From Schmidtea nova (lineage: Eukaryota), in the NCBI GenBank assembly GCA_044892505.1, contig CM097882.1, positions 239,382,001 through 239,446,000 of the forward strand: a stretch of DNA of 64,000 bases. The letters run 5' to 3'. The notes under the pieces are model-generated. The model ran no database searches. It saw only the letters and a program-made list of their open reading frames with translations, and was not told the DNA's origin. Below are positions 22,139 through 49,719 of the stretch, piece after piece. Positions within the stretch are counted from its first letter, which is position 1, and every line of letters starts with the position of its first letter. Both the position numbers and the translations under genes were made by a program.

Positions 22139-22277
22139 ACATTATATTCACATTTTTATAAACTAAACGATTTCAATAAATTAAATGGTGTTGATCCGTG
22201 TTTTTGTTTGTCCTTAGTTAAATTTATTTCTATTTATTTAATCATATGATTTTTACACTCGACGGATAATATTAATC

Positions 22278-23783: not shown

Positions 23784-23784
23784 A

Positions 23785-24288
23785 ATGATAAAAACAACAA
23801 AGTTAAAACGATTATTTATTCAGCAAATGGAGGAAAAACTGAAAGAAATCGAAGAATTTCTCAACACAGAAAGCGAAACATTAGCAACAATTGGCAAGAA
23901 AATAAACCGATTTAGAGAAATTGAATTTCAAGAACCCACAACACAGACCGAAGAAACAGATGAATTAATAAAGATAACAGAAAGAACAAGTAAAATCGAC
24001 ATAAAAACCCGCTACAAATGGTACCAAGCACGACTAGAGAATGCGGAGCTAAACATTAGATGCAGACAAATAGAACAACAATTAACCCCAACATACAAGC
24101 GATGGAGGGCGCAAGGGGTAGAAGCAGCGAAAAAATACCGACAGTGCTATATATGTGAAAACAACGAGATACAAATTATGTTTTTACCTTGCGGACATTT
24201 CCGTTTTTGTAAGATCTGTGCCAGCAAGTGTGACCGGTGTCCGATGTGCAACTTTACCGTGAATGAAAAAATTATAGTTTATTTGTAA
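23785..24288 (+). CDS. Coiled-coil + C-terminal C3HC4 RING protein (IAP/MDM2-type RING, no BIR), 167 aa (copy at 3650-4153)
   Basis: CYICENNEIQIMFLPCGHFRFCKICASKCDRCPMC at 24145-24249, close to the C-terminus. Confidence 0.85.
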   Translation: MIKTTKLKRLFIQQMEEKLKEIEEFLNTESETLATIGKKINRFREIEFQEPTTQTEETDELIKITERTSKIDIKTRYKWYQARLENAELNIRCRQIEQQLTPTYKRWRAQGVEAAKKYRQCYICENNEIQIMFLPCGHFRFCKICASKCDRCPMCNFTVNEKIIVYL

Positions 24289-31600: not shown

Positions 31601-34600
31601 TACGTATATAGTCGAACTAAAAAGCTATGAAGCATTCTTCGAACCCACAACGGGAGAAATGAAAACGTTATCCATGTGTAAAATCGACAGGAGCATGTGT
31701 CAAACGGGAATGTCAACATTAGTGTACAAACCAAAGGTGAACGAATGTCAATTACAACTGCTACAAGGAGCAAAGTTCGACGAAATCCAAGGAAAAACGT
31801 TCCAGGAAGAAGACGATGACGACAAAGCTAGAGCAAAGCATCTCAAGGAAGCTTTAGAGAATAAAAGACAACTGAAACCAGACCATAGAGAAAAACGGAT
31901 AGAGATGAGAGCCACACCAACAGTGTTGATAACCACAAATCAGGATGTGGGAATGAGGTTCATAAAAGGGAAAGCAACCCTTAAGTGTAGTACAACGGTA
32001 TACGAAACGAATTATCCAGGAATATATGTGTCAAAACAAGAAGTGCCAAATGCGAAACCCAAAATCGACACAATGGATATCAAACTACACCTATATGTGA
32101 ATAATAAAATGGATTTCCTATTCCATAGAGGACAAGCCTCATTACAAAAAGTGTACTACGATCTGATAAACAATGATTGTATACTAAATCGAGAAATATT
32201 AAAGACAAAGTTGGCCGTAGCAATTACGAATCCAGACAGCGCGATGCCATTATTACCACTGAGAGAAGGACATTTCGGAAGAGTGGTTGGAGAAGCAATG
32301 TATGTATACATTTGTGAAAAGACACACGCATCGCTAGCAGCAACAACACAGTTGAAACCTGGAACCTGTACAAATGAGTTAGAAATCGACTACAAAGGAA
32401 AAGTACGATACGTTCAACCAGTGACGAGAATCATCAATCCACCAGGGTTTGAACCAAATCCATTCAACTGTAGTAATGCGTATGGACCACTTTATCAGAA
32501 ACCAGATGGTAAATGGGTTATGTTCCCAGGAAGATCCGAAGTGATAGCACCAAGAGAATTCGAGCTAATGCAGTTGTCAAAGGATAGGCAATTCAGCGAC
32601 GTAGATGTCTCAAACAACGGAATATATAGTCCAAAGGATTTAGAAGCAGCAAGGCAGAATATATTATTTCCAGCGAGAAGAGAAGCATTACTGTCAAATA
32701 TCGTAACGATAACGGGAGGAACGGATTATCGAGAAGGACCGAATTATGAACTGTTGTTATCACCAGCACATTTCAAAAAAGCCACGGAAAATATGATGAA
32801 AGCCATGTGGGGAAGATTCCTGATATTTGGACAAATGATGGCGGGAATACTGGGGGTTATATTAATAATACAAATCGTCAGAGTGATAATAACGCAAATG
32901 TTAGCGTGTTTCGATATCTACAAAAGAGAAAAGAGAGTGAATTGGAAAATGGTAGTAGGATTTTTACCATTCCTTGCGAAAACAATGGTGTTGCACGGAC
33001 ACTCAAAAGATATCCATCGAATAAAAAGACTCCTAAAGATACTAGCAAAAATGAAGGGAACAGATGAAGAAGTAGGACGAAAATTTAAAAAGATAATGAA
33101 TGACGAACAAGCAAGACAACAGCTCAAGAGAGAAAGAAAAGGTCTATGGGAGAGGGTGAAAGGATATAAAACCCAAAATGATTCGAGTGACGACGATGAC
33201 GACGATGACGACTATAAGGGAGGACAAGTGTATAAGAACCAAGCACCACAATACATCGAAAAGAATCCAGCCGACGCATGGAAATGTTACGCACCTCCAC
33301 CAACCATGTATCAAGAACCACTACAAGGAGGAAAAAATAGCACGATGCAAATGATGCCAATGACAAATGTATACCCCATGATACCAGAGGATTATAAAAT
33401 GAGAAGATGTAGAAGCGTGGATCCACAAGGAGACACACATACAATCGCCGTAATGTCATCTAACACAGGTCCAGTGTTAACCACAACAATAGAAATTAAC
33501 GGAAGAGAAATCGAAGCAATGATCGACACTGGAGCAAATATTTCCGCCATCGACATCAAATGGATACCACAGGAGCAAAGACGAGAAATAGAAAGGACAA
33601 ACGTCCACGTAATTGCATGTAGCAAGGAAGTTGTAGAAGTAGCAGGAAGATGGTGGGTAAAAATACGCCACTTAAACACAGAAATCGATACCTACGTAGC
33701 AGTTATACCAGCATTAAGCGTGCCTTGCATTATCGGAACAGATTTGATGCCAGCATTATTTAAAGAGATTGTAATCGATCTCGGAACAATGAGACTAAAA
33801 GATCGCACAGGACAAATATGCGCAATAGAAGCCAAGGTGACAAGTTCAAAGCAAATGATAATACCGGCAAGAAAGGAAAAAATATGTTACGTAAAAATAG
33901 ATCCGACAATCCAAGGCGATATGATTTTCGAACCAAGTAAGAGATTCGAGAAAAGAAAAGCGTTGCCAATGGCAAGAGGATTAGTCAACATAAATGATAA
34001 TGGAGAAATCCCAATAAACGTGGTAAATTTCGACGAAGAGGATAAAATAATCTACGAAAACGAAAGATTAGGTAAATTAACCCCAATGATGGATATAGAA
34101 CTACCAATAGCAGGAGCAGAGAAAGATAAAGAACCAACATGGAATATTGATAGTGAATTATTAAATGAGAATCAAAAGAAGCAATTAGAAAAACTGCTGA
34201 CAGAGTATAAGGACATATTTGCAGCATCCGATTTGGATCTAGGAACCTGTGATGTCACGTTACATACGATACCACTAACAGACGAAACACCGATTGCATT
34301 AAGGCCGTACAAATTAGCAGAAGCACAGAAAGCAGTAGCAGAAGCAGAAGTGAAGAAAATGTTGGATGCAGAAGTGATCGAACCAAGTTGTTCACCCTGG
34401 CAATTTCCAGTAGTAATGGTAAAGAAGAAAGACGGAACACAGAGATTCTGCATAGATTATCGAAGATTGAATACAGTGACAAAACGAGATACTTACCCAT
34501 TACCAGACATCAACGAAATGCTACTAACATTACAGGGAGCAGCATATTTTACATCGCTAGATCTGAAAAGCGGATACTGGCAAATAAAAATGAAGGAAGA

Positions 34601-37600
34601 AGATAAAGAGAAAACTGCCTTTACCATCGGTAGAGACCTATATCAATTTCGAAAGATGCCCTTTGGATTAACAAACGCACCAGCATCATTTCAGAGATGC
34701 ATGAATTTCGTCACCCATGGAATAAAGCAGTGTATGGTCTACATCGACGATTTATTAATCTACTCTAGCACGTTTGAACAACACATACAGGATATTCGAG
34801 ATGTATTCGTTAGACTTAGACAATGGAAGTTAAAACTCAAGCCATCCAAGTGTGATTGGGCGAAAGAGAAAGTAACATTTTTAGGACATATAGTGTCAGC
34901 AAAAGGAAAAGAACCGGATCCTAGAAATATCGACAAAGTAAAGGAATGTCCAGTACCAAAAACAATAACCCAGATACAAGAATTTCTTGGATTATGTGGA
35001 TATTATAGAAAGTTTATAAAAGATTACGCCGGAATAGCAAAACCTATACAGGAACTAGTAAAGAAAGATGTATCCTTCATATGGGGAGACGAACAACAAA
35101 CAGCTTTCGAGACATTAAGAGATAAACTGATAACCGCACCCATATTGGTACACCCAGACTTCAAGAAGCCATTCTTACTTGCAACAGACGCAAGCGGATA
35201 TGCAGCAGGAGCAGTATTAGGACAATACGACGATGAAGGAAAAGAACGCGTAATCGGATATTATAGCCGGACATTCAAAAAGCATGAGAAAAATTACTCA
35301 GTAACCGAGCGAGAAGCGTTAGCAATTATACTAGCAATTAAACACTTTAAATATTTATTATGGGGACACATCATCTGTATAACCACAGATTACCAACCGC
35401 TTGTGTGGTTAGGACAACATAAGGAAACCTCCAGTAGATTAATGCGATGGGCAATGCAGCTACAGGAGTACTCACCAGACATAAAATTTAAATCAGGACG
35501 AGCGAATGCGAATGCAGACTGTATGTCCAGACTGACATTTCCGGAATTAACCGACCCGGATGTACAACGAATTTGTGTATTAATAGCAGAAGATTTAGAT
35601 TTTAGTGAGTTAAAGAAAGATCAACAGGAAGACAGAGAGTTAGGACAGATCATAGAGTTCCTAACATCTCGAAATATAGAGGTACTCAAAGATAATAAAG
35701 AATTAAAGGAACATATAGGAAAATATCAACATCGATATATAATAAATAAAGGATGGTTATTGATACAAGACGGTGAAAAGAGGCTGATGTGTTTACCGGA
35801 AAACAGAAGGAAAGAGATAATGATCCAATACCACGATGGGAAATTAGGAGGTCATATGTCAGAGAAAAAGACAATAAATCGGATGAGACAGAAATATTAT
35901 TGGCGAACAATGGAAGAAGATATAAAAGAATGGATTAAAAATTGCCTAACCTGCGCAACTAGAAAGGATAGTGGGAAGAAATGGAAGAACCCGCTACAAC
36001 CAATGCCGATACCAGCAGAGCCAATGACAACTATAGCAATGGACGTAATAGGACCATTACCAGAAAGCTTAAACGGAAACATTTACATACTGGTAATAAC
36101 GGATTACCTGACGAAATTCCCGGAAGCATTTGCCATGCAAGATCAAAAAGCAAAAACCGTAGCAAAAATTCTAGTGGAAGAAATATGCTGCAGATATGGA
36201 ACTCCAAAACAAATACTCACAGACCAAGGAACTAATTTTATGAGTGAGTTATTAGGCGAGGTGACAAACTATTTCAGAATAGCGAAATTGAGAACTTCAC
36301 CATATCATCCACAAACGAATGGTCAAACAGAGCGATTCAATGGCACATTGATTAGAATGTTATCAAACTATGTCAGCAGACACCAAACTGATTGGGACGA
36401 ATACATAAAATTATGTTTAATGGCATACCGAATGTCGATACATGCCGCAACAAAACTAAGCCCGTTTCAACTTATGTATGGCAGAGAATGCAACATGCCC
36501 ATAGATTTGGAGTACCAGCCACCATTATCGCAATATATGGAAGATGACGACTACGTAACCAAATTCAAAGAAAGAATGCAGGAAATATGGAAAACGGCAG
36601 AACTTAACATTAAATTTTATCAGGAAAGTTATAAAGACTTACACGACCAGAAGAAAAATGTTAAAGCGAACGATCTAAAACCAGGAGATTGGGTGATAAT
36701 AGAAACTCCAGAAATAATACCAGGAACGGTTAAGAAACTCCAAAGACCTGGAAGAGGACCTTATGAAATTATATACAAAAAGGACAACAATGTCAAAGTT
36801 AAGCTAATAAATCGACCGTTAATACGACCCATATATGTAAACACCTGCAGATGTAAGAAGGTGCCTAAAACGATAACTACAACACCAGAGAATCGAATAA
36901 TAACCAGATCACAAACAGCCAGGATAAACATGCTCAGAGCAAACACCAGCGAAGACGACAAAACAGAAATAAGGCAAAAAGAAATCAGAAATAAAGAAAT
37001 CCTATTGAAGGCGAGAGAGATAATGGGAAGATGGCATGTTAGAGACGAAGCAGGCATATCAAGGGACATTAGACACATAATTAGCCGTTACGCACAAGGA
37101 TTACCAACCGAACCAATTATTTCTGAATTATTGATAAAAATCCCTGAAATACTCTTATTAAAAGATGTAGGAGGACAACCAGCCTTACATAATGCGATTC
37201 AGTGTAAAAACATTGAAAGAGCAAAAGAATTCTTGAAAATCGCAAAAGATACAAACCAAAACCTAGACGTTGGGAATCGTGAACAGGAAACTCCATTAAT
37301 GACAGCAGCCATCTACCAAGCAGATAAAGAAATGGTAGATCTGTTGATAAAAGCCCGTTTCAGTTGGACAGAACGAGATAGAGAAGATAAAACAGTGCTA
37401 AATCACGCGATATGGAGTTCTCACCAACTTATGTTGGAATATATAATAGCAAACTCCACTTGGGAGATAGACGAACTAGTTAAAGGAGACATTATCAAAG
37501 AGGCAATCAAAATTGGTAAATGCAACACGATCCGTAAGTTAATCAAATGGAAACGACCAGAAGATGATACATGGGTCTTAGACATAAACGAAGTATACAG

Positions 37601-40600
37601 CGAAGGACAAAACGCACTGTTAAGATACCTTTTGAAATTTACTTGTGATCAGAAGACATTACTAACCTTATTAGACAGGGGAAACATAAACATCACAAAA
37701 AATGAAGAAGAACACAAATTCGATAAAGAGAAGGAGGTCTTATTCAACAAAATTAGGAAATGGTGTGCAAAACCACTTGATAAACTAATAACATACAAAG
37801 ACATAAATAATTTTAACGATAAATACCAGACTATAGTAAGTGAGTACGAGGAATTAGTAAAAATCTTAAACCATCCCGAAAAATGCAAACAGGTTTTGGA
37901 GAGAAAAGAAAGAGAAAGTAACAAGAAACTCACACCACTCTTCAAAGCAGAAGCACCATACCAAGCTAGACTAGATGCGATACAAGAAAAAGCAAAGGAG
38001 TTGCTACCGGACTTCGAGAATTGTCAACACGCATTAGAAATACTCGGTGCCTTAGTTGAAAAAGTACACGCGTACGCAAAAGGAACATACAATGGTAACG
38101 ATATAACGACTATAAAAAAAGAAATGCCAGTAACATTTTTACTACCAAAGGACGGAATAATGCCCATACATAGAGCTTTACGAAATGGCAAAGATAGAAA
38201 AGTAATGGAAATTGCACGAATAATGCTAAACTGCGGAAGCAACATGAATATGGTAGACGAGAAAGGAGATACACTCATGATATTTGCAGCAAGGGCCAAA
38301 ACAAAAACAAAAGTGTTGGAAGAACTATACAAAGCAGGTGCAGGACTTACAGGAAAGACAGATAAAGATAATTCAATTTTGGATGTAGCATTACTAACAC
38401 ATAATTGGGAAATGGTCAACTTCATTAAAACAATCTCAAATCAGGAAGAAATAGATTACCTAACTGATACGGTCAGGAAACCCAGTGTACTAGCAATGAT
38501 GAACAACGTCGAACTAACAGAATCAATACTTACGTGGATAAATCCGAATACCAACGAACCAGCATTCAAGATTAATGAGTTTACAGAACATAACCAAAAC
38601 TGGTGTATAAGAAGTGCCCTAATAACATATAAATGGCCAGAGATATTGAAGATGTTTATGGAAAGAAAGGATCTAAGAGTCACAAACAACCCGAGAGAGG
38701 GAAAATACACAGGCAAATGGAAAGAATTAATGAGGACATACATCAACAATTGGATCAAGGCCAAAAAGGAAATCTTAGAATATAAATCCACTAACAAAAT
38801 AATACCGGAGCAGATAGAAACACAAGAATTTGAGGCAAGTAATCTAACGACATTAGCATACGCAAAATTGATAGAAGAAATCAATGTCGAGGACGACATT
38901 TTCGACGAGCCAGGGGGAGATGACAACACAGATAGTGACGACGGTAACAACTCAGAAAATTCAAGCGATCACGAACCACCCGATAAAGAGGAAAACGAGA
39001 GAAAAGACAAGAAACGAGACAAGGAAGGAAAGAAAGGTGAAGACGAAAAACAAAGAGATGAAGAGAGAGAACAAGGAACAAACGACCAAGGAGATAAAAA
39101 TGACACCCAAAGAACAGGTTATAAATCAACCATAAAACCATTCTTCAAACCAGAATTACTATTACTAACAATGATTATAACGTTAATTAATCCAAGTCAA
39201 GGAATGACATGTGAAGAAAGGGCAATAATACAAATAAAAAACGCAAAAGGAATCGAACGAGTATGTTGGTCAAAAAAGGACAAAATCACGGAACAAAATA
39301 GCCCGATGGATTGCAGAATCTCAAAACACGAGCAAGAAATCATAGAGATCAACGACCTGGATCTAAATACCTGGTACAAAATATGCACCGTTAGAAAACA
39401 AAAGCATCCAAGATCACACAACAAAATCGCATGTGCAAAATACCAAACACCTAAAGCAGCCATGACAATACAACAGTCACCCAAAGGAGATTACATCATC
39501 GGAAAATGTGGAAGGACAGAGACACAGGGAACAGAAAACAAAAAACCCCAGGCAACAGATAAGCAAACAACACCAACCCTACGAATTACAATAGAGAGGC
39601 CTGAAGCAAGAGTTGCCACAAACGAAACCGAAAGAGTGTCCTACCAAATGGAAGTATTATGTTTAGCACTCATACTAATAATGATAAAACGATTAGAGGA
39701 AGGGATAGAAATTGAAACTATGACAATAACAGAAGTAGAAGATACACAGAATACTAACATAAAATGTTGGGCGAGAAATAACGAGGAAATCGGCGTAAAC
39801 GAAATAAGGAAAAGTCGAAAACCAACAACGAATAAAGTAATTAAAATATCCGAAGTAAAAGCAGATAAGACGTACAAACTATGCCTACTAGAAAAAGAAA
39901 CGAACAAGAAAGGTACCACAAAATGTAAAACATTTCAACCTGGAGAGGTAATAAAGTTCAGAAGGAGAACGAGGAAGAGAAATAAACAAATCAAGCGGAA
40001 AGTAAACATAACATTAGAAATAAAAGAGATAGAACCAAATGTGAAAGGAGTATGCTGGAGGAAGTACGAAAAAGAAGTAAATAAAAGAACGACACCACAT
40101 TGTCGAACAAACACAGGAACAACGACGATTCAAATAAAAGGTTTAGAAAGTAAACAAACCTACGAAATATGTTTGGTAAAGAAAAATGATCAGATAACGA
40201 TAAACGACCTAGAATGCGGAATATATACAACGTCATCCGGAACAAGAACCAAAACGTTAACACGGAAAAATAAAAGGAAACAACGAAACAAAGGAAAACC
40301 GAAGTACACCACTACCTTTAAAAACAATAAACAACCAACAAACCAAGAAGTTACGACGAAACCCGAGAGAAAAACATCAGCAACTCTAACATTATGGAAA
40401 ATAGAGAATAAAACATTAGAAATATGTTGGATAATAGTACAGAAACATATAAGAAGACAATCAAGAGAATGCAGAAAAACAAATAAAGAAATCAAGATCG
40501 AAAAACTACAATTTAATAGCGAGTACGAAGTATACGCAATAGAAATAATGGACGCACTAAGAAACCAACAAGAAAGATGCGAAACCTACTATACACCAGT

Positions 40601-42611
40601 AAACGCGACATCAAAAGGAATAACAAGGAAACTCGAATTCAGGGAACTAAGCCAAACGAATGAACAAATGGACGCAGAAAAAATAATAATCGACCCTCAA
40701 GCAAAATGGACACCCGAAGAAGTTATCAAAGAAGTCAAAAGAAAGCAAGAGGAACGAGAACAATTAATGAGAAAACTAAAAGGACAATACGGAATAATGT
40801 TCAACCAAAGCAAATCTATACAAACAGACGAGAATAAACAAATCAAAGAATTAATTGGCTTAGGAATATTAACAGCGACCATACCCGTAATAATCGCGTT
40901 ATCAGCTATATGGATACGCAAGATAAACCCAAGGAAATCGGCAACCCAATGGCCAAATATAGACAATACAAGCCATGGAGTTGAAATACTGGAAGAAAAC
41001 GCACGAGAAGAACCAAAACCGACCAGGAATAAGAAAGAAGCAAAAATCGCAAAACTAGGAATGAACAACAAAGACAAGGAAATAAAAGAGATTAAAGGAG
41101 AAGAGAAAAAATATGAAAGGCGAACCAGAAGCCTACCGCAGAGTTCAAAATGGTTGGGTCTAACAATAATATTGACATTAATCAATGGGGAAGAAGCAAT
41201 AAACCCACAGACAGGGATAAAAATAATAAATGTCCAGGAAGTCGAGAAAATATGTTGGTATAGAGAAGATGAACCAATTGGAGAAAATAACCCACTAAAA
41301 TGCATAATCCGAAAATCCGACCAGGATATAATACGAATAGAAGAAATGGATGGAGGGACCATGCATCGGATATGCATAATAGAAAAGGAAAAGAAGTCGG
41401 GGCTACCTAAGACAGTCGTATGCCAAAAATATGAAACGCCTAGACTTGAATGGTATAGAGTAAAACCAACAAAGAAAGAAATCAAAAACACAATAGATCA
41501 ACCAGCAACTCAGATGAAAAACACAACGGACAAACCAGGAGAAGGGGAGAGAAGCACAAATAACACGAGAGAAGAAGTATCACCCCAACAAGATTTCGTA
41601 TGCATAGCGTTAATAATAGCAATGTCCAAACGTATCGATAAAGGAATAAGAATAGAACAAATGGCTATGACAATAAGGAGAAAAAACCAAAGTAACAAAA
41701 TATGCTGGGTATGGTACAACGAACCAAGAGAATACCAAGTTCAGACAAGCGACGAATCACGAACAAACAAGGAAATCGAAATACAAGAAATACAAATGAA
41801 TGAAGAAGGAAGTATATGTATATGGGAGAAAGGAACCCAAGAAGATCAACCCGGAATAGAAAATTGCAAGACATTCCAAAAAGGAGAAACTCTGAAATTC
41901 GATGAAGAAGAACTAACTAAAACAGAAAGAACTCTGACATTAACAGGACTCGATCAGACAGTTAAAGTAATATGTTGGACAAAACATAAACCAGAAGTGG
42001 AAGAAGACAACCTAACCCACTGTAAAGAAATAAAGAATAAAGAAAAAGTCGAATTAAAGAAAATGGAAGTAAATAGGACATACGCGATATGTACCTTCAC
42101 CAGAAAAGGTTCAGAAAAACCAGAATGCGGATTATATCAGATCTCAGAGAAACTATCACAACAGACCGAACCAGGAGGCGTAGAAAACCAGACGACGAAA
42201 AATGACGTCAAACAACTACTAAACCGCCATTGGTCTACCCAAGAAGTAATGAACAAAGTCAAGAGTCAAATACCAAAAGAGAAGAAGCCAGAGGCTCAAA
42301 CCCAAAATGAGATAAAAGCGAACCAGAATAAAAGAGAAACAAACAGTGGAAAAACAATAATAGGATTAATGAGTATAGGAATATTAATAGCATATGGAAT
42401 ACTGACGACAAGCATAATAGTATATTGGAGATACAGAAAGAGAAACAAAGCGACAGCCATACAATGGCCAGATATTAAAATCATGAAACTAGGAATAGAA
42501 ATACCAGAGGAGATACAGAAAGAATTTCAAAGAAGAACGAAAGGTAAAGAATTCTGGAAACAAATAGAAGATGAAGAACGATACGAAGAAAAGACGATAA
42601 TGATGGTATAG
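25695..42611 (+). CDS. 5638-aa polyprotein: Gag - Ubl x4 - Bcl-2-like - Env-like glycoprotein - PR - RT - RNase H - IN - ANK - FN3-like/TM modules
   Basis: Uninterrupted ORF; the track start is TTG and the first in-frame ATG is at 26127. Motifs: 3 CCHC knuckles (26838-26990), DTG (33525), YIDD (34740), RNase H DAS (35187), HHCC (35832-35954), DDE core, GPY (36756). Confidence 0.95.
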   Translation: MRKGAKSVAIKPTKKQKAGKDNHKNPQGSKARKIIRDKSIIENDKLSVVSNSSSNKENQAEPKENQTSEIESDETINDNIEEVENEVEPEVETNESDNESIISDNEGIRETESDSSSSGTEDEHNNELETRGNESKITQDSGIEMGEPREEIKDKFSGEPFNGDASKLEIFLKEFGIFVEVCKWKAETTASRIQLYLKDSALDLYLEAKNGTNPPTSWSAIKDFFQQTFGINKVLSEAFIEFSMRKQKMNESNAVYASELKKLAKSVFKDGGPINEELMAAIFIGGLRRPDIRAQVGCQGCKTIDQALETANRFELHMIGSEGRIYLAMDTAQTEPEVNLNNHIPNSQQLNRPPPQRRNEGNKVQNFGNQNNYHPQGQTKQCKTCGKLGHWQQECYQNLNCGKCGVKGHSESRCSTIICFNCGRPGHYSRNCGQKGNQRGNWQNNGNRPNYGNQTNTANRQDYGNQQVNNNNNQNKTTTKEIHLMQEVQRLTELINNTTRGNPQTNQQQISMMRKIESENERLNRESQARHAQEWARIQREDEQKQQERERQPLRINMLRATNQTDTREKETTLEMNSIDPNPADNESRKEIVQKDEEVEKEVEKEAETEINQEERRKIWKKGMMVIMPNDHVFRFQYNAKEKVEILFNKVNQMIPGVTKLPREAFLQIGDAPSVKLKLTDIWENMGVTETKRNVMRIKEIESEEIPPPVRHETRISRIFKGKMIRRRLKEIDELEKKMRKVEVIEDKSEPTLEIAKNEPEPTENIQGETNQIAHISMLRNTTREFSDEEEDSDISSLAGDILNESEDENKEREVIKTSEPTQIKVDEIQKLLDNSLEVIYNEEFMDKKQYRKFMKALLQMNYKDWLQDREVDMLNRYVGKLIEEPLLNYTISIIINTSTPRIWIKTPFTDDIYRWVEDRLGSSYKNKFIYSQNRLVKKRTHLVETGIWPGEITLLSICDEKEEENLQEVAREANTCFERRIKPRLEYEKERVLRKNLNSLIEQIIPQVKKHRKELMRSEYEKLKRCIECIRDTSHTRWSQISHDKLIAKMGKTMFRQGKITDLKISVELPNEDTKEIEVVADCTIKELINVINETLVQREPEDEWEDDIIIQYNEHVLWDHDERRLYKIGIWDNHQTIHVIRMDDTPRETAKDEKRERERRKEVVRKLQQIVEIYRNWRIWPEWENVLEELNLNRRIRTPIEKQWNEKGKCWEPKEGEYEEEYERGMEDDCEPEMRRVCMVTRKATPIDLDGPETAAIWVEKEKQKTEEFVEILKTNAHGKRKIIKGLADFFVVNGEDITCLRKVAKAIAEYKRVNEWCPEQLDHVIRKWRNQEFSQEIPQKVHLRIIYPNKDKEELWVGIAEKIRDIKKKLRYEPPFHLQHQGRSLDNSLEIRITPAQLDLMNTLTVEAIAGQPLKRKEENHKPHGSISTPSPMKSVLTPGTSSRRSETTPRGNREMTPPQPYDVDEILTDSDDMIEELTELTKEKDDNIFERIQELPTTIQVTNTGETEVEEEIIIEEINDLIEDEARGTNVENVQLTQEMERWLEERANEPRDVTEETGRATRFVETVTGMDRRPRGRPKTDPANVVIRNKDEKRQDQWEVCLKKLNKIAEIKEKETTPICQGEEWISKTIMEILAIIDPELKKYWRITEISEKAKSLHSAIAPILPEFIKVKTKSNHLDWQGTTTLIKKLTEGAETDNKYVIAIAYTIYNLLTLSRGRPKPTALERHIKNTAKIIAREIEPYIINKGGWETFIKTNQKKTQAKNMKKKFEKILEELEKEQAGTGNAKSSMNLSSIIMMMLIWMISTDSATAFEVFDCDQMKLGEKYSLRGTEQCKDATPVELQKIKKEQWYHVYQEAELIKTMVNECKVQKTRFAFYCGRGHYSAIVMPGTEREPIVLQGEDCEALFKHGEVTTRDKIKIKGKPGMMMQQTYYVAGRITGGEGYCQGETYPMFGTLATNLVVMDTYIVELKSYEAFFEPTTGEMKTLSMCKIDRSMCQTGMSTLVYKPKVNECQLQLLQGAKFDEIQGKTFQEEDDDDKARAKHLKEALENKRQLKPDHREKRIEMRATPTVLITTNQDVGMRFIKGKATLKCSTTVYETNYPGIYVSKQEVPNAKPKIDTMDIKLHLYVNNKMDFLFHRGQASLQKVYYDLINNDCILNREILKTKLAVAITNPDSAMPLLPLREGHFGRVVGEAMYVYICEKTHASLAATTQLKPGTCTNELEIDYKGKVRYVQPVTRIINPPGFEPNPFNCSNAYGPLYQKPDGKWVMFPGRSEVIAPREFELMQLSKDRQFSDVDVSNNGIYSPKDLEAARQNILFPARREALLSNIVTITGGTDYREGPNYELLLSPAHFKKATENMMKAMWGRFLIFGQMMAGILGVILIIQIVRVIITQMLACFDIYKREKRVNWKMVVGFLPFLAKTMVLHGHSKDIHRIKRLLKILAKMKGTDEEVGRKFKKIMNDEQARQQLKRERKGLWERVKGYKTQNDSSDDDDDDDDYKGGQVYKNQAPQYIEKNPADAWKCYAPPPTMYQEPLQGGKNSTMQMMPMTNVYPMIPEDYKMRRCRSVDPQGDTHTIAVMSSNTGPVLTTTIEINGREIEAMIDTGANISAIDIKWIPQEQRREIERTNVHVIACSKEVVEVAGRWWVKIRHLNTEIDTYVAVIPALSVPCIIGTDLMPALFKEIVIDLGTMRLKDRTGQICAIEAKVTSSKQMIIPARKEKICYVKIDPTIQGDMIFEPSKRFEKRKALPMARGLVNINDNGEIPINVVNFDEEDKIIYENERLGKLTPMMDIELPIAGAEKDKEPTWNIDSELLNENQKKQLEKLLTEYKDIFAASDLDLGTCDVTLHTIPLTDETPIALRPYKLAEAQKAVAEAEVKKMLDAEVIEPSCSPWQFPVVMVKKKDGTQRFCIDYRRLNTVTKRDTYPLPDINEMLLTLQGAAYFTSLDLKSGYWQIKMKEEDKEKTAFTIGRDLYQFRKMPFGLTNAPASFQRCMNFVTHGIKQCMVYIDDLLIYSSTFEQHIQDIRDVFVRLRQWKLKLKPSKCDWAKEKVTFLGHIVSAKGKEPDPRNIDKVKECPVPKTITQIQEFLGLCGYYRKFIKDYAGIAKPIQELVKKDVSFIWGDEQQTAFETLRDKLITAPILVHPDFKKPFLLATDASGYAAGAVLGQYDDEGKERVIGYYSRTFKKHEKNYSVTEREALAIILAIKHFKYLLWGHIICITTDYQPLVWLGQHKETSSRLMRWAMQLQEYSPDIKFKSGRANANADCMSRLTFPELTDPDVQRICVLIAEDLDFSELKKDQQEDRELGQIIEFLTSRNIEVLKDNKELKEHIGKYQHRYIINKGWLLIQDGEKRLMCLPENRRKEIMIQYHDGKLGGHMSEKKTINRMRQKYYWRTMEEDIKEWIKNCLTCATRKDSGKKWKNPLQPMPIPAEPMTTIAMDVIGPLPESLNGNIYILVITDYLTKFPEAFAMQDQKAKTVAKILVEEICCRYGTPKQILTDQGTNFMSELLGEVTNYFRIAKLRTSPYHPQTNGQTERFNGTLIRMLSNYVSRHQTDWDEYIKLCLMAYRMSIHAATKLSPFQLMYGRECNMPIDLEYQPPLSQYMEDDDYVTKFKERMQEIWKTAELNIKFYQESYKDLHDQKKNVKANDLKPGDWVIIETPEIIPGTVKKLQRPGRGPYEIIYKKDNNVKVKLINRPLIRPIYVNTCRCKKVPKTITTTPENRIITRSQTARINMLRANTSEDDKTEIRQKEIRNKEILLKAREIMGRWHVRDEAGISRDIRHIISRYAQGLPTEPIISELLIKIPEILLLKDVGGQPALHNAIQCKNIERAKEFLKIAKDTNQNLDVGNREQETPLMTAAIYQADKEMVDLLIKARFSWTERDREDKTVLNHAIWSSHQLMLEYIIANSTWEIDELVKGDIIKEAIKIGKCNTIRKLIKWKRPEDDTWVLDINEVYSEGQNALLRYLLKFTCDQKTLLTLLDRGNINITKNEEEHKFDKEKEVLFNKIRKWCAKPLDKLITYKDINNFNDKYQTIVSEYEELVKILNHPEKCKQVLERKERESNKKLTPLFKAEAPYQARLDAIQEKAKELLPDFENCQHALEILGALVEKVHAYAKGTYNGNDITTIKKEMPVTFLLPKDGIMPIHRALRNGKDRKVMEIARIMLNCGSNMNMVDEKGDTLMIFAARAKTKTKVLEELYKAGAGLTGKTDKDNSILDVALLTHNWEMVNFIKTISNQEEIDYLTDTVRKPSVLAMMNNVELTESILTWINPNTNEPAFKINEFTEHNQNWCIRSALITYKWPEILKMFMERKDLRVTNNPREGKYTGKWKELMRTYINNWIKAKKEILEYKSTNKIIPEQIETQEFEASNLTTLAYAKLIEEINVEDDIFDEPGGDDNTDSDDGNNSENSSDHEPPDKEENERKDKKRDKEGKKGEDEKQRDEEREQGTNDQGDKNDTQRTGYKSTIKPFFKPELLLLTMIITLINPSQGMTCEERAIIQIKNAKGIERVCWSKKDKITEQNSPMDCRISKHEQEIIEINDLDLNTWYKICTVRKQKHPRSHNKIACAKYQTPKAAMTIQQSPKGDYIIGKCGRTETQGTENKKPQATDKQTTPTLRITIERPEARVATNETERVSYQMEVLCLALILIMIKRLEEGIEIETMTITEVEDTQNTNIKCWARNNEEIGVNEIRKSRKPTTNKVIKISEVKADKTYKLCLLEKETNKKGTTKCKTFQPGEVIKFRRRTRKRNKQIKRKVNITLEIKEIEPNVKGVCWRKYEKEVNKRTTPHCRTNTGTTTIQIKGLESKQTYEICLVKKNDQITINDLECGIYTTSSGTRTKTLTRKNKRKQRNKGKPKYTTTFKNNKQPTNQEVTTKPERKTSATLTLWKIENKTLEICWIIVQKHIRRQSRECRKTNKEIKIEKLQFNSEYEVYAIEIMDALRNQQERCETYYTPVNATSKGITRKLEFRELSQTNEQMDAEKIIIDPQAKWTPEEVIKEVKRKQEEREQLMRKLKGQYGIMFNQSKSIQTDENKQIKELIGLGILTATIPVIIALSAIWIRKINPRKSATQWPNIDNTSHGVEILEENAREEPKPTRNKKEAKIAKLGMNNKDKEIKEIKGEEKKYERRTRSLPQSSKWLGLTIILTLINGEEAINPQTGIKIINVQEVEKICWYREDEPIGENNPLKCIIRKSDQDIIRIEEMDGGTMHRICIIEKEKKSGLPKTVVCQKYETPRLEWYRVKPTKKEIKNTIDQPATQMKNTTDKPGEGERSTNNTREEVSPQQDFVCIALIIAMSKRIDKGIRIEQMAMTIRRKNQSNKICWVWYNEPREYQVQTSDESRTNKEIEIQEIQMNEEGSICIWEKGTQEDQPGIENCKTFQKGETLKFDEEELTKTERTLTLTGLDQTVKVICWTKHKPEVEEDNLTHCKEIKNKEKVELKKMEVNRTYAICTFTRKGSEKPECGLYQISEKLSQQTEPGGVENQTTKNDVKQLLNRHWSTQEVMNKVKSQIPKEKKPEAQTQNEIKANQNKRETNSGKTIIGLMSIGILIAYGILTTSIIVYWRYRKRNKATAIQWPDIKIMKLGIEIPEEIQKEFQRRTKGKEFWKQIEDEERYEEKTIMMV
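26127..26990 (+). CDS. gag: Gag (capsid-like region + three CCHC zinc knuckles), part of polyprotein
   Basis: FNGDASKLEIFLKEF...W capsid-type start; CKTCGKLGHWQQEC, CGKCGVKGHSESRC, CFNCGRPGHYSRNC. Confidence 0.92.
27564..29927 (+). CDS. Region with up to four ubiquitin-like (beta-grasp) domains, part of polyprotein
   Basis: Best copy 28884-29123 (LKISVELPNEDTKEIEVVADCTIKELINVIN...IQYNEHVL...RRLYKIGIWDNHQTIHVI) follows the ubiquitin pattern; weaker copies at 27564-27791, 28362-28571 and 29721-29927. Confidence 0.5.
30495..30971 (+). CDS. Bcl-2-like helical domain, part of polyprotein
   Basis: BH2-like IEPYIINKGGWETFIK (compare WIxxxGGWxxF) ending a ~160-aa helical segment; BH1 is degenerate. 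Confidence 0.6.
31077..32912 (+). CDS. env: Envelope-like fusion glycoprotein (chuvirus-G / class III-like), part of polyprotein
   Basis: Signal-like MNLSSIIMMMLIWMISTDSATA|FEVFDC; Cys pattern ECKV..RFAFYCG; YVNNKMDF...LQKVYYDLINNDCILNREIL..LAVA..P..A...GHFGRVVGEAMYVYIC...CTNEL; TM at 32817-32912. Confidence 0.75.
33444..33800 (+). CDS. Retropepsin aspartic protease, part of polyprotein
   Basis: IEINGREIEAMIDTGANISAI ... CIIGTDLM; boundaries approximate. Confidence 0.93.
34140..35530 (+). CDS. pol: Reverse transcriptase + RNase H, part of polyprotein
   Basis: SPWQFPVVMVKKKDG, RFCIDYRRLN, LDLKSGYWQI, MPFGLTNAPASFQ, YIDD, FLGH; LATDASG, YSVTEREALA; boundaries approximate. Confidence 0.97.
35790..36870 (+). 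CDS. Integrase (HHCC, DDE, GPY/F), part of polyprotein
   Basis: YHDGKLGGH...CLTC; AMDVIGPLP; LTDQGTNF; YHPQTNGQTERFN; GRGPYEI; boundaries approximate. Confidence 0.96.
37170..38430 (+). CDS. Two clusters of ankyrin repeats downstream of integrase, part of polyprotein
   Basis: GQPALHNAI, ETPLMTAA, KTVLNHAI (37170-37450); GIMPIHRAL, GDTLMIFAA, NSILDVAL (38151-38430). Confidence 0.8.
39156..42480 (+). CDS. Two tandem membrane-protein modules: signal + 4 or 3 Cys-containing FN3-like repeats + TM, part of polyprotein
   Basis: Signals LLLLTMIITLINPSQG (39156) and WLGLTIILTLINGEEA (41151); repeats with CW...I.I..L...Y.IC...C..Y/F; TMs at ~40851-40917 and 42357-42428. The repeats are clear; the FN3 fold is inferred. 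Confidence 0.55.
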
Positions 42612-42738: not shown

Positions 42739-43095
42739 ATGACCGAACAGGACGAAACAACCGAAATAACTATGGCTATGAGATGGAAAGCACAATGCGA
42801 TTTATTAGTACGAACAGTCAACTCATTACAGAACCAATTAGCGGAAAAACAAATGTTACTATCAGAAAGTTATAACAATTGTTTCGAACAATTACACAGA
42901 ATAGAGGAACAACAAAGAGCGATAACTGAACTCACCAGGGAAAATCAAACGATAAGCAACACCAATCAAAGACAAGCAATAGAAATAAACCATTTAACAC
43001 GAGGAGAAAGAGAAGGATCCGAAGAAGGATGGATGAGTTGGGTAATAAATAGATTAAACAACGAAGCGGAACCAGATTCAACGAATGAGCCATAG
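42739..43095 (+). CDS. 118-aa coiled-coil protein, unknown function
   Basis: ATG-initiated ORF on the element's coding strand; Q/E/L-rich heptads. Confidence 0.65.
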   Translation: MTEQDETTEITMAMRWKAQCDLLVRTVNSLQNQLAEKQMLLSESYNNCFEQLHRIEEQQRAITELTRENQTISNTNQRQAIEINHLTRGEREGSEEGWMSWVINRLNNEAEPDSTNEP

Positions 43096-43192
43096 ATAAA
43101 TAAAGCGAAAAAAAAAAACTGTAAATATGTAAAAATAAAAACAAGAAAACCAAAAATAAATGACAGGTCGAATGTATATATTATTGTAGAAA

Positions 43193-44569
43193 ATGGACCG
43201 AGATGAACGGGTAATCGAAATCTTGAGATTAGAAAACAGAAAATGGAGCAAGAGGCTCACATGCGGAAAATGTAATAATTTATTGCGAGAACCCAGACAA
43301 ACGATATGTGGATGTAGAATATGTACAAAATGTATACAAGAATTAGATGCAACAGGAATAACAACATGCCCAGAATGTAAGGAAGGAAGAATAGTGTTGG
43401 ATGAAACCAGAATGGACAAAGCAACCCAAAGAGAAATTATGAGCACCACAACGGAGTGCGTAAATACACCTTGTACATGGCAAGGACAAATAAGTAATCT
43501 GGAAAACCATATGGAAAAATGCGAGGAAAAGAGAGCCGAATGCGAGAAATGCCAACAGACAATAACTCTAAAGAAGAGAGAACAACACAAGGAAGAATGT
43601 AAAGAAGAAGAAATCGCATGCGAGTATTGTGAAACTCGAGAAACAAGGAGAAAAATCGAAGAAGAACACTTAAATATAACAGAGGAGAAAGTATGCAGAC
43701 AATATGTAAGCAAATGTCCAAACAATTGCGAAATAACAGAAGAAATAAAGTTACATGAACATTGGAAAATATGTACCGAAAGGCCAAGAGAATGTCCATA
43801 TAACAAGCATGGATGCAAGGAAAAGCGGACGCGAAAAACAATGAAACAACACTTGGAAGAAGCAGCACTAACGCATGTGGAAATGACAAACGAAACGACA
43901 AAAGAAACAGAACAGACAGTCCAGAAATTAGAAAAAGAAGTAGAATCACATAAGATAATGATGAGTTTACTACTAGAAACAAGAGAGCAGTTTGAACTAA
44001 CTCGCGAAAGAATGGAAAAGAAAATAATAGCCATAGAAGAATTAGGAAAAGGAATGAAAATACAATATAATCAACTAATACGAGAAATTGACGAAAGAAG
44101 GGACTTACCAATCGCACCTTACCTATGGAAAGTAACAGATTTCAGAGACAAACTAGCAGAAGCCAGAAATATGACGAAAACAGCAGTAATAAGCCCACCA
44201 TTTTATTTATGGAAAAATGGGGTTAAAATAAGATTGAAGGTCTACCCAAATGGAGACGGAAGAGGACAAGGAACACACGTATCAATATTCTTCTCGTTAT
44301 GTAAAGGAGAATACGATGACCTAATAGAATGGCCCTTGAAAGTAGGAGTCATTATAAGAATCAAAAGTATAGGAAAACCAGTAGAAAAGTTCTTTGAAAC
44401 AGACAAACATACGAGTACAAGCGAAAAACCAACAACAGAATGCGGACTAGCAGCAGGAGAACCAATGTTTATAAGGAAAGAAAACCTATGGGAGCGACTA
44501 TATGCAGACACGCTATACATAGAGATGGAGAGGCATGAGAAAACGGATAGAAAAGGATGGTTGGCGTAA
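43193..44569 (+). CDS. TRAF: TNF receptor-associated factor homolog (RING - Zn fingers - coiled coil - MATH), intronless
   Basis: RING CGKC..LLREPRQTICGCRICTKC...CPEC (43262-43378); TRAF Zn fingers; MATH YLWKVTDF...SPPFY...IRLKVYPNGDGRGQGTHVSIFFSLCKGEYDDLIEWP. Confidence 0.93.
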   Translation: MDRDERVIEILRLENRKWSKRLTCGKCNNLLREPRQTICGCRICTKCIQELDATGITTCPECKEGRIVLDETRMDKATQREIMSTTTECVNTPCTWQGQISNLENHMEKCEEKRAECEKCQQTITLKKREQHKEECKEEEIACEYCETRETRRKIEEEHLNITEEKVCRQYVSKCPNNCEITEEIKLHEHWKICTERPRECPYNKHGCKEKRTRKTMKQHLEEAALTHVEMTNETTKETEQTVQKLEKEVESHKIMMSLLLETREQFELTRERMEKKIIAIEELGKGMKIQYNQLIREIDERRDLPIAPYLWKVTDFRDKLAEARNMTKTAVISPPFYLWKNGVKIRLKVYPNGDGRGQGTHVSIFFSLCKGEYDDLIEWPLKVGVIIRIKSIGKPVEKFFETDKHTSTSEKPTTECGLAAGEPMFIRKENLWERLYADTLYIEMERHEKTDRKGWLA

Positions 44570-44683: not shown

Positions 44684-45745
44684 ATGGGAAATATAGAAGT
44701 AACCTTACAAGAAGTAACCGTACATCAAGACGAAATGATCAGAAATCACATGGAGCGGATTGGGATATGGATTCACGCCTATTATCGTAAACAGGAAGAA
44801 TTAGAAAGACAAACCGAAGTACTAAGAGAAGCTGAAGAAAGGAATCAAAGAAGTAGAGAAAAAATAGAGGAAGTCTATAAATTACTGAGGCAACAAAACG
44901 AATACTACAAAGGAATGATGAAAGAGCGACGAGAGGATAGAGATAGACAACAGATAAAAACAGACCACAAGATCCAGTCCATCACCGAACAAGCAAGATA
45001 TTGGAAGAAAGAGGCAAAAGACTCTTACAAGGAAGCAAGGGAGATAATTGAACGAACAGCGTATAGCGATGATTGGAAACTGTTTAAAGAGATCGATGAA
45101 TTAAAAGAGGAATTAGGGCAAAAGATCAGTCAAGAAGCGTCAAATAAGGTATGGAGTAAGAAAAGACAACAATTCATCAGAGAACAAGCCAAGAAAATTA
45201 AAGAATTAACTTATCAAGTACAAAGAATGGGAGAAGATTTAGCCAATCAAGAACAATTAAAAGGTATGCTGACCGGAATGTGGAATCACAAGGAAGAAAA
45301 CATGAAAAGAGACATAAATGGATACCAAGGAGTGATTACCCAGAAGAAAATAGAATTAAAAAGAACTAAAGAAAGACTAGAAGAAACGAGGCAGAGTTAT
45401 GAAGAGAACATAACCAATTTGACAAAAGAAAACGAAGAACTGAGAAAGAAGCTAACAGAAAAACCAGTACCCACAAAGGAAACAAGTATCACAGCAGCAG
45501 TGACCGAAATGATAAAGAAAGAAGAGAGAGAGAAAAAATTAGCAGAATTGGAAAAACAAATAGAAACCCTAACAGAGCAGGCGAACTATCTGGAATACTT
45601 ATTAGATGAAGAGATTCAGATATCCCACACATACCGAGAGGAAGTGGAAATGTGGAGGAGTACGGTAATATGGATGCCACTCCCCATAAATCAGGTGGAA
45701 CCTCAAGACGAAGGTTTTCACGAACCTAACGAAACCCTCGTGTAA
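44684..45745 (+). CDS. 353-aa long coiled-coil protein, unknown function
   Basis: Intact ORF, E/K/Q/R-rich heptads throughout. Confidence 0.75.
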   Translation: MGNIEVTLQEVTVHQDEMIRNHMERIGIWIHAYYRKQEELERQTEVLREAEERNQRSREKIEEVYKLLRQQNEYYKGMMKERREDRDRQQIKTDHKIQSITEQARYWKKEAKDSYKEAREIIERTAYSDDWKLFKEIDELKEELGQKISQEASNKVWSKKRQQFIREQAKKIKELTYQVQRMGEDLANQEQLKGMLTGMWNHKEENMKRDINGYQGVITQKKIELKRTKERLEETRQSYEENITNLTKENEELRKKLTEKPVPTKETSITAAVTEMIKKEEREKKLAELEKQIETLTEQANYLEYLLDEEIQISHTYREEVEMWRSTVIWMPLPINQVEPQDEGFHEPNETLV

Positions 45746-45823: not shown

Positions 45824-46384
45824 ATGAGAAAGCTCGCAATACCAATACTCCTATGGTTAATAACCATCACCCTACAGAGAGAAGATCTACAACTTACCGA
45901 AACCCAATTACGAGTTCTACCCGACAAAACCTACCAAAAAGTAGACAGCCTAATCGAAGAAGTAATTAAAGAAATCAACGAATTCCGACAGAAATATCCC
46001 CACAATCAAGATCATCAAATCCAACAAATCTTAGATAACCAACAACTGAAACTAAAAGAAACCCAAAAAACCCTGAAAGAAGGTAGAGAGCCCATAAAAA
46101 GCCTAGCCCAAGCTGAAATAGAATATCAAGAGAAATGGATCATAGCAATCATCATAATCCTCTCAATCAGCGTAACTATCGTCGCAATCACAATCCTGAT
46201 TGCCTCCTACCGGATAAAAATCCTCAAACAGAAACAAACCATCGTCAATCAAACATCAAGGCGAGACAAACGAACCCAAAGACGTATGAGAAAACATCTA
46301 GATCAAATTCAGACCCACTACGAATTAGCTACAATCAATGAGAGAACTCAAACCCAACCCAATGCGAGCCGGAGGATCGAATAG
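45824..46384 (+). CDS. 186-aa predicted type I membrane protein
   Basis: Hydrophobic N-terminus MRKLAIPILLWLITITL, coiled-coil ectodomain, TM WIIAIIIILSISVTIVAITILIASY, basic tail. Confidence 0.7.
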   Translation: MRKLAIPILLWLITITLQREDLQLTETQLRVLPDKTYQKVDSLIEEVIKEINEFRQKYPHNQDHQIQQILDNQQLKLKETQKTLKEGREPIKSLAQAEIEYQEKWIIAIIIILSISVTIVAITILIASYRIKILKQKQTIVNQTSRRDKRTQRRMRKHLDQIQTHYELATINERTQTQPNASRRIE

Positions 46385-46601: not shown

Positions 46602-49600
46602 TGTTGGGCCCACCAATTGGTCTAAAAAGGCAAAAATATTGTACTAATTTAAACAATAAATACAAATAATAACCACAAAAAAAAAAAAAAAAAAAAAAAA
46701 CATTCGAAAAACCTAAATTAAAAATTAAAATAAAATAATAAATAATAATTACTAAATTTCCAGCAAAGGAAGAAAATCAAATTGACACGAGAACGAGCAG
46801 TATGGGGGTCTGAAATAAGAAAATTACAAATAAAATCAAATAAAAGTACAATTAATTGGTTAATTACTTGAAAAATCGAGACCACCCAGCGAGAAATCTG
46901 AACCGGAAATTTAAAATGGTTTATATTAAAATAAAATAACAAAATTACTTTGATGGACGGCCTGATCCTGATTGGTCAATCTGACCAACTGGATCAGTAT
47001 AAATACCGATCCAAAAATCATACAGATAACACCTAACAAATTAGTTACCGAACTGATCTATCATAGTCAACTTTGATACGATAAATACTGTATAAATTTT
47101 TGGAGAACACTGCATCGTGGATTTAAACAGTAAATTTTTTTTTTGTATTGTATTTTGTATTAATTTTTATGATATGTTTCATGATTCCCATTTGTTTTAT
47201 TTTCATTTAATATAATTTATTACTATTGCTCTATTTTTCTTATGCCATTATTTTTATGATATAATAAATATACTTCCTCAGTAGCTTACGCTGCGAGGGA
47301 GCAAGCCGTAAATGTGGGATTTCACCGTTCCACAAGATGGTGAGCAGAGTTTTTATTAGTATTCTTTATTTAATTTCATTTTATCGGAAGTTTCACGGTA
47401 CGGTAAAGTTGTGCAGGGACAAGGACACGAGTAAAATTTGTAGACAGTGGTTAACATTTACATTCGATCAGACAGGCGAAAACAAAACTATAATATCAAT
47501 TATCAGGTCGACTAGATCGATTTTTCTCATATACACGCGAATTTTTGTGAATCAACATAGCGGATCGAAATAACGTCCGGACACACCGAGACGATTTCGA
47601 CGTTCCAACTACAGTTTAATTTAGACATAAATAACGACATATTCGGATCGACACTACTGATTAAATAAATAAAATCGTAACCTGATCGCTGTACATAGCG
47701 CAGGTAATAATAGGTAAATTTTTCATATTCCGATCGCTGTACATAGCGACGGTGTTAATTGAATAGTCTGGAAAATATTTTTTTTATTCCTCCTTTTCAC
47801 ATTTTTTTTTGTGTTATTGATCAGCGAGCAGAGCACTTTTTTCTCAGGTCTCACCAAAATTTACGGATTCGTCGCAATAAAATTTATTATTAATTTTCTC
47901 AGATGAAAGCAACGATGCTGGATGAATTTCTAACCACTCAACGTCATGTGGCACGGGTCGAAAATCCTCTAATCCGGACGCAACGGAAGAAATTGAAGTC
48001 GCTCCCACAGGAACTCCTCAGAACGCTAAATGCGTTGATGTATAAATGGAGAAGGGAACTAGGAAAGAAATGTCCATTTTCGATTTGGACCGGTGGATTG
48101 GATACCATCGTATATCGAAGAGGCCCCGGATGGGAAATTCAGGACGAAAGAGACCGGGAGACGACAGCTCTGTTCATCATAGTGGTGTCAGACAGCGAAG
48201 GAAATCCCACGACAGCGATCCATTGGGGATATGTCTCACCGCTCAAGTTGCTTAAATTCGGGTTGATTCCGAATCACCTACCGAAAACGTGCCACGGACG
48301 CCCCAAACTAAACTGTTCGATGGCTCACATCCGAAGAAATCCAGTCAATCACGGGTTGCATATTACTCCCGTTCACGGCCTCAAGCGAAGTGTTTTCCAC
48401 TAAACATTATATTCACATTTTTATAAACTAAACGATTTCAATAAATTAAATGGTGTTGATCCGTGTTTTTGTTTGTCCTTAGTTAAATTTATTTCTATTT
48501 ATTTAATCATATGATTTTTACACTCGACGGATAATATTAATCTTGGTAACATGTTTGATGCATTATAAATTGGGTTTGTTATTTAGTATGACGGAAACTA
48601 GCCAACAGCGAGAATTGGACAAGGCGTGGAGAATCCGCCGAGCATTGGAGAAGGAGCTAAACCAAGAAAAAGCCTTACGAGCCAAAGCAGAAGCTCAGAT
48701 TCAGCATTTACGGACCAGCTGGTTCGCACCAGCTCGCATGAAGGAGCAGATGAGTCGGACAGAAAGGGCTCAAAGGACAGCTGACGATTATCGCACCGAA
48801 TGGGAAGCAACAAAAATTGAGTTGCGCCGATGTCTCCATTCGGTGACGACTTCATTTATCGAGTCCGAATTGAAAGCACAAATCCGACCCATTACCTACC
48901 AGAAATGGGTAGGAGAACAGAAAGTGGCCTGCTCAGTCAGTACGGACACCGATGGACTCGAGGCAACCACAGTGCAGAGTCGAGTGGAAACCACCACTGC
49001 ACCAACTCCCGCCGGAAAACCGAATAAGCGAAAACGAATCGGCTCCAAGCGTCGTCGCCAAAGGAAGCTGTTTTCTCAGCAATTGCAGACACAAGTAACC
49101 ACGATGGCAGGAATGTCGGAAGCCGAGTGGTTGGCAGAGATGTTTCCACCTGAAGGAATATTCAAAGAATTCCTATAACAGCTAGAATACGATGTCAGAT
49201 TGTGGACTTAATTAAAATTTTGCTCGTTTTTGTTTTTTTTTTGTTGTTGTTAATTCCTAAGTATTTTTCCTTCGATTACATAATTCGTACCATTACCTGT
49301 AAATTACCCGTCACACAACGAAAAGAGTAGCGATAAAGAACTTAAATATTATCAAATTCGTAGTTTCGTTTTGCTTGTTTGTTTTTTGTTTTTACGATAA
49401 TTACATAACCGCACACACACACACAATAGAACTATAATTGCGTAAGTCCTTCTACGGCCGCGTGAACCCGTAAACATAAAGGGGGAGTAGTCCTAGCAAT
49501 AGTGCTCACCTGCCCCTCATTGTTTAATCACCCTGCGCATCACCAACTTGGTTATCAAGGGAAATAATCAAGGGCGCTCGAGTGTAACTTACGACTATTT

Positions 49601-49670
49601 ATGCATGATCATGGATGGGAGATCCCTAGCCGTCATTTGAATTTTTATCAACCCGTCCATAAACCCAGCA
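46602..49670 (+). repeat. 3' LTR (3069 bp)
   Basis: By eye differs from the 5' LTR at about 4 substitutions and 2 homopolymer lengths; followed by TSD AATC. Confidence 0.96.
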
Positions 49671-49719
49671 AATCAAAGTAAATTTTTAGCGCAATTTTCA
49701 AAAGTTTTAAATAATTTTT

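Follow-up and report, generated by a model that had tools for sequence, protein, structure and literature searches.

The window, as the whole analysed stretch of 64,000 nucleotides from Schmidtea nova is called here, carries on its forward strand an LTR element of 29,331 bp (20340-49670), which contains an open reading frame for a full-length TRAF protein (43193..44569). The two LTRs, at 20340..23405 and 46602..49670, have TG..CA ends, and the element is bordered by the target-site duplication AATC (20336..20339, repeated at 49671-49674); a flanking inverted repeat shows the empty site in its other arm. The 3' LTR differs from the 5' LTR by only 4 substitutions, in addition to 3 inserted bases, and this copy of the element is young. 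The 5' LTR is followed by a 167-aa ORF with a cIAP/XIAP-type RING and no BIR match in Pfam (23785..24288) and by a polyprotein of 5494 aa (26127..42611), which comprises zinc knuckles, a fusion glycoprotein (env), protease, reverse transcriptase, RNase H, integrase and ankyrin repeats, as well as two FN3-like plus transmembrane modules and a weak BCL2-like segment that matches Bcl-xL at E about 1 only. Four ORFs lie between the polyprotein and the 3' LTR, all in the same orientation: an accessory ORF of 118 aa (42739..43095), the TRAF ORF, an accessory ORF of 353 aa with a weak filament-like coiled-coil match and a dN/dS of 0.09 (44684..45745), and one of 186 aa with one hydrophobic segment (45824..46384).

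The two modules at 39762-42536 (polyprotein aa about 4545-5470) each combine FN3-like domains and a transmembrane segment with a WPxI motif, a layout that presumably resembles that of cytokine receptors. The Foldseek matches of the FN3 module are FN3 domains, the model itself being of low confidence (pLDDT 49). Each LTR holds two further ORFs of 166 and 206 aa (21638-22913, 47903-49178), and the 206-aa ORF has relatives of 31-37% identity in the element families B, C and E described below. The element occupies one arm of an inverted repeat of ~6.3 kb with 97-99% identity (19933-20339 with 49671-55599 versus 55737-62062). Moreover, window positions 1-16827 duplicate positions 20136-36964 at 99.98%, left flank included and with the LTR unchanged, and this region, which ends at an N run, is either a segmental duplicate or an assembly artefact.

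In its architecture the element resembles the giant Gypsy elements Burro / GYPSM1 of planarians (PMC6431247), with which it shares a length of ~30 kb, a single polyprotein of ~5000 aa in which env is placed, in frame, between gag and the protease-RT-RNase H-integrase part, ankyrin repeats, and a cargo of IAP-type and MATH/TRAF sequences. On these features, together with the TG..CA ends and the target duplication, it was classed as Burro-like. An assignment to Burro1 proper was rejected because there is no BIR match and no MATH domain was found by Pfam in the polyprotein. In Burro1, MATH_TRAF_C is part of the polyprotein, and in an element of Dugesia tigrina it lies in an upstream accessory ORF (PMC6431247); the occurrence of a TRAF-C domain in Burro elements is therefore already published. 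Unlike in Burro1, the TRAF of the window lies downstream of the polyprotein as a complete gene with RING, zinc fingers, coiled coil and MATH, and the IAP-like ORF has a RING without a BIR match. The review describes neither RING, zinc fingers nor selection for the Burro TRAF (PMC6431247).

The TRAF ORF (P0001) encodes 458 aa in a frame without internal stop, and its identity was established by Pfam, by matches to PDB sequences and by an AlphaFold model. The RING (43262..43378) is of an eight-cysteine, C4C4 type with C24, C27, C39, C41, C44, C47, C59 and C62, as seen in the copies and in the alignment to the RINGs of TRAF6/2/5. It is followed by about five TRAF-type zinc fingers (aa 89-228; 43457..43876), recognisable from invariant Cys/His alignment columns and Pfam zf-TRAF, by a long helix that is predicted to form a coiled coil (aa 225-302; 43865..44098), and by the MATH / TRAF-C domain (aa 310-448; 44120..44536). 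Pfam reported MATH at 310-445 (E 9.5e-21), zf-TRAF at 166-220 and, weakly, TRAF3_RING at 24-62, and the PDB matches are the MATH regions of TRAF2/3/5 and the RING-zinc-finger regions of TRAF6/2/5. The AlphaFold model has a mean pLDDT of 83.8 with a single helix at 225-302, and its N-terminal part superposes on the N-terminal domain of TRAF6 (3hcs) at 1.8 A over 140 columns. With an N-terminal RING followed by TRAF zinc fingers, and a coiled coil followed by a C-terminal MATH/TRAF-C domain, the protein is a TRAF family member, and the preliminary description, which had recognised all these parts in an intact ORF inside the element, was accurate in this respect. It had also read the RING as CGCRIC, and codon 41 (43313..43315) is indeed TGT, so that a Cys stands where the canonical vertebrate-type C3HC4 RING has His as the fourth zinc ligand. 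Likewise, the A-rich codon style attributed to the gene and the rest of the element was found: A makes up 72% of the fourfold-degenerate sites in the element TRAF and 59% in the polyprotein, as opposed to 25-41% in 10 host-type TRAFs.

In the genome search for the element TRAF, 92 copies were scored among 4461 candidates. All of them are 95-100% identical and 87 are without internal stop, giving at least 92 dispersed TRAF copies for the family of the window element, named here family A. Little follows from the open frame of the window copy itself, given how young this copy is. A set of 70 of the 92 copies, consisting of the best 30 and 40 chosen among those not flagged for stops, retains all eight RING cysteines, including Cys41, in every copy (70/70), pN/pS being 0.11-0.17 where a variant is widely shared and 0.35-0.55 where it is a singleton. 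However, this set is biased towards intact copies, and the test was therefore repeated on 30 copies for which the neighbouring ORF had served as the selection criterion. In 29 of the 30 the TRAF adjoins this ORF, intact in 24, truncated by the edge of the locus in one and with stops or frameshifts in four; it is missing from the remaining copy. For the neighbour-picked copies an omega of 0.106 was obtained, and neutrality was strongly rejected against a fixed value of 1.0 (2 x delta lnL about 583); on 65 copies omega was 0.122. By domain, the values are 0.085-0.087 for the RING region, 0.085-0.118 for RING plus zinc fingers and 0.090-0.093 for MATH. Between families omega is 0.095-0.14 (A versus E 0.14), with synonymous sites near saturation for B and D. 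The TRAF is thus present in other copies, has the cysteine in all 70 copies examined and is retained under purifying selection. The two outcomes that would have spoken against the preliminary description, absence of the gene from other copies and lack of purifying selection, were both looked for and did not occur.

Four element families (A, B, D and E) carry the TRAF, in each case directly after the 118-aa ORF and 3' of the polyprotein or a polyprotein remnant, and the gene is a fixed cargo of the element. Identity to the window TRAF is 77% in family E, 52% in B and 35% in D, and the RING has the Cys in all three. Family C (L066 / L065) has a MATH domain alone, which lies inside the polyprotein, the arrangement described for Burro1, and joins the other element MATHs at 80/94 in the MATH tree; a search for a free TRAF in those parts of the L066 element that lie downstream gave no match. 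Family D (L235/L165/L172 and L238/L166/L167) keeps the IAP-like, protease, ankyrin and TRAF parts and a second RING ORF. Searches of its two copies for gag, env, RT and integrase gave no match, and the terminal repeats of the first copy are 99.7% identical; this family is apparently a non-autonomous derivative that keeps host-derived cargo. At one locus of family B (L074), an internal deletion seems to join env/protease and the TRAF MATH in one frame of 1304 aa.

The cysteine in the RING had been interpreted as a change made within the element, on the premise that cellular TRAFs have CGHRFC. This premise holds for vertebrate structures and for 75 of the 98 scorable RINGs in the protein library (150 representatives: 75 His, 23 Cys, 52 without scorable RING), but not for the TRAF2/3/5-like genes of the host itself. 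The host-type TRAF loci of the same genome yielded 18 distinct RING strings, 17 with Cys, one with Ile and none with His, and in the flanks of 10 such loci the gene order of Burro is absent, the matches there being scattered ones of 25-38%. His RINGs were found in the genome in only two TRAF4-like genes, both with introns, and a genome search with a His-type TRAF2 query returned nothing closer than the Cys clade among the best candidates scored. The species-named proteins with a Cys RING, among those looked up, are three TRAFs of Dendrocoelum lacteum and three echinoderm TRAF3-like proteins (P0070, P0077, P0091), the latter with Cys for His and outside the triclad clade in the tree of 39 rows. 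An element-specific replacement of His by Cys is therefore rejected; because element TRAFs and triclad host TRAFs fall into a single clade (100/99), the element received its eight-cysteine RING by inheritance. Nor is it supported that the Cys, being common to host, Dendrocoelum and echinoderm TRAFs, is a sign of altered E3 activity, as had been proposed. CNOT4 and TMEM129, which likewise have eight Cys zinc ligands instead of C3HC4, are active E3s (PMC4431670, PMC4024746); these proteins are unrelated, and all that follows from them is that a RING with such ligands can have E3 activity. The odd RING being a trait of the host lineage, assays premised on the replacement as a cause of altered E3 activity would ask the wrong question.

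The phylogenetic position of the element TRAF was determined with trees of 48 and 39 rows and a MATH-only tree, all computed with IQ-TREE; the long-branch host rows L039, L040, L069 and L121 were left out of the first two, and P0035 and P0046 also out of the 39-row tree. The element rows have a skewed amino-acid composition, which was flagged by the tree tool. In the 39-row tree, the element TRAFs and the library protein P0015 form one clade (100/100), and the element TRAFs and the triclad host Cys-TRAFs form the clade mentioned above, separate from the echinoderm Cys-RING TRAFs. The same triclad clade was recovered with an SH-aLRT of 99 in the 48-row tree, with an SH-like support of 97 in a FastTree tree of 104 rows, where one long-branch host row lies outside, and at 85/77 in the MATH-only tree, where five two-exon or MATH-only host rows lie outside. 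Having a CGC[RK]xC RING and grouping with the triclad hosts, the element TRAF is a member of a triclad Cys-RING TRAF2/3/5-like clade, within which a position of the element sequences as sister group of every host Cys-TRAF sampled has a support of only 70/45, their skewed composition being a further caveat.

The triclad TRAF2-like genes of this clade (D. japonica TRAF2-like A, Dendrocoelum TRAF-2/-4/-5, Smed-TRAF-2A/B) are similar to the element TRAF in length and finger layout, often run from RING to MATH in one exon as it does, and share CGC[RK]xC where a RING is seen, the Dugesia japonica record being without RING and the sequence of Smed-TRAF-2A/B outside the comparison. They differ from it in that they are only 28-36% identical, and in the A-rich codons, Lys26, Ser410 (families A and E) and the at least 92 family-A copies of the element gene. 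One host locus with a Cys RING (L035) shares 70.5% identity with D. japonica TRAF2-like A. Host TRAF/MATH genes are densely clustered at G000:C2 405-455 Mb (L031-L060), where many of them stand in tandem. A recent host donor was not found, host identities to the element TRAF being 28-32%, and a word-indexed protein search with the element TRAF returned only distant metazoan TRAFs. The phylogeny, which had been called for in the preliminary description, supports the host origin of the gene, and the A-rich codons together with the four element families in one clade support its long residence.

The absence of introns had been taken as evidence that a host mRNA was captured. However, ten host-type TRAFs also run from RING to MATH in one frame, seven of them with an in-frame Met, and in six others an intron separates the RING from MATH, so that an intronless ORF is no proof of mRNA capture and this argument was rejected. 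A retro-captured spliced host mRNA is nevertheless a plausible source. We infer that the gene was captured once, anciently, from the Cys-RING TRAF clade of triclads and before the element families diverged; RNA was probably the intermediate, since LTR elements copy that way.

As to expression, all four 3' ORFs (ATG at 42739, 43193, 44684 and 45824) have a T-rich tract with a YAG 1-3 nt before the ATG. The tract at 43172..43189 ends in TAG 3 nt 5' of the TRAF ATG and is a likely splice acceptor, and the acceptor-like signal recurs before the TRAF in families B, D and E. The starts of the 3' ORFs account for 4 of the 8 such sites among 526 ATGs, by a criterion chosen after the sites were seen. 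This pattern suggests that the 3' accessory ORFs may be expressed as retrovirus-like spliced, or trans-spliced, mRNAs, and the TRAF would be made from its own spliced subgenomic RNA by way of the acceptor-like site.

Concerning function, to which the sequence is our guide, we consider it on balance probable that the element TRAF, intact, under purifying selection and anciently captured, works as a TRAF2-type adaptor that promotes the survival of cells expressing the element. The protein would trimerise and enter host TRAF complexes, beside the IAP-type RING and BCL2-like cargo of the element, and the net effect would be pro-survival for these cells. Ziman 2020 gives Smed-TRAF-2A/B as co-ortholog of D. 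japonica TRAF2-like A and reports that knocking it down is lethal and increases cleaved caspase-3 (PMC7586133); the IAP of Burro1 is reported, second-hand, to protect stem cells from apoptosis (PMC13465017). The direction of the effect is not guaranteed, since the viral TRAF ISKNV ORF111L promotes apoptosis and not survival (PMC11598847). Between an adaptor mimic and a dominant negative, both of which had been suggested, the intact and constrained RING leans towards a working protein. Two positions may nevertheless matter. Position 26 of the RING, which we take to be an E2 contact, is Lys in the window TRAF and lacks a hydrophobic residue in families A, B and E (Lys or Asn), whereas 8 of 10 host TRAFs keep one. 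Residue 410, presumably in the receptor-peptide groove of MATH, is Ser in families A and E, as opposed to Phe/Tyr in TRAF3 and most host TRAFs; in families B and D, too, this residue is still aromatic. Because of these residues, binding or E3 function may differ from that of the host proteins, and if E3 activity or specificity does differ, Lys26 and Ser410 would be likelier causes than Cys41.

The exchange at position 26 could also point to a decoy or dominant negative that joins host TRAF trimers or receptor tails, signals poorly and damps innate immunity against the element, a reading we regard as possible though not probable. The residue after the last RING Cys varies among the families (K, K, D, G), and family C retains MATH only, within the polyprotein, a RING-less TRAF domain being a classic form of dominant negative. 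However, TRAF2 itself has Ala at position 26, and the RING and zinc fingers, for which a pure decoy has no obvious need, are as constrained as MATH; moreover, loss of host TRAF-2A/B kills cells (PMC7586133) and would therefore harm a vertically inherited element. The altered groove loop in families A and E (TSTSEKP versus SACYQKP in the host) could instead belong to a retargeted ubiquitin ligase, whose active C4C4 RING and remodelled MATH groove would serve new substrates such as host silencing factors or membrane proteins of the element. The activity of the C4C4 RINGs of CNOT4 and TMEM129 (PMC4431670, PMC4024746) and the two FN3-like plus transmembrane modules with short tails are compatible with this; yet the aromatic residue is kept in families B and D, no convincing TRAF-binding motif was seen by eye in the tails, and the FN3 model has its low pLDDT, so that we hold such a ligase to be distinctly unlikely.

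A reversed direction of transfer, with the element lineage as the source of the intron-poor Cys-RING TRAF family of triclads, is very unlikely. In its favour, the tree allows the element clade as sister group of the whole host Cys-TRAF sample, RING and MATH share one frame in many of the host members, and the two His-type TRAF4-like genes have introns. On the other hand, the host members are free of the A-bias, RING and MATH are separated by an intron in several of them, and the family also occurs in Dendrocoelum. In addition, no closer His-type TRAF2/3/5 gene was found among the best candidates scored in the genome search, and the Cys clade therefore looks like the vertical TRAF2/3/5 lineage of the host. 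Hardly any credence is left for a neutral passenger, or for the element-specific RING mutation first proposed: the youth of the window copy would allow the former, but omega is about 0.1 within and between families, and the host TRAFs carry the Cys.

A known parallel to the element TRAF is provided by the TRAF2 homologues of megalocytiviruses (ISKNV ORF111L, TSIV ORF34), which are likewise host-derived and virus-borne, the TSIV protein having both RING and TRAF domains as the element TRAF does (PMC11598847). Megalocytiviruses are large DNA viruses of fish, and the TSIV capture is possibly recent, whereas the element TRAF was captured long ago by a retroelement that is inherited vertically. In the literature searched, which lies outside two primary papers and their supplements and therefore gives weak evidence, nothing was found on a full-length TRAF at this 3' position, on selection acting on it or on a RING of C4C4 type among triclad TRAFs.

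For the genome as a whole, dispersed element copies make up a large share of the MATH and RING matches, and part of the planarian TRAF/MATH expansion reported in two studies (PMC6109357, PMC7586133) may therefore be element-borne. In a wider reading, which we offer as speculative and rather improbable, Burro-like elements would carry a self-contained kit for survival signalling. It would consist of a full-length TRAF with a spliced mRNA of its own, the IAP-type RING, the ankyrin repeats, and the BCL2-like and receptor-like FN3-transmembrane parts. The TRAF, kept since about the split of the triclad TRAF subfamilies and even in the young family D, in which RT and integrase are lacking, would then be a dispersed multi-copy aid to planarian stem-cell survival and not a mere viral countermeasure. 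The host-transposon mutualism reported for the Burro1 IAP gains a further, testable gene, namely a complete TRAF that is strongly constrained in four families of the element.
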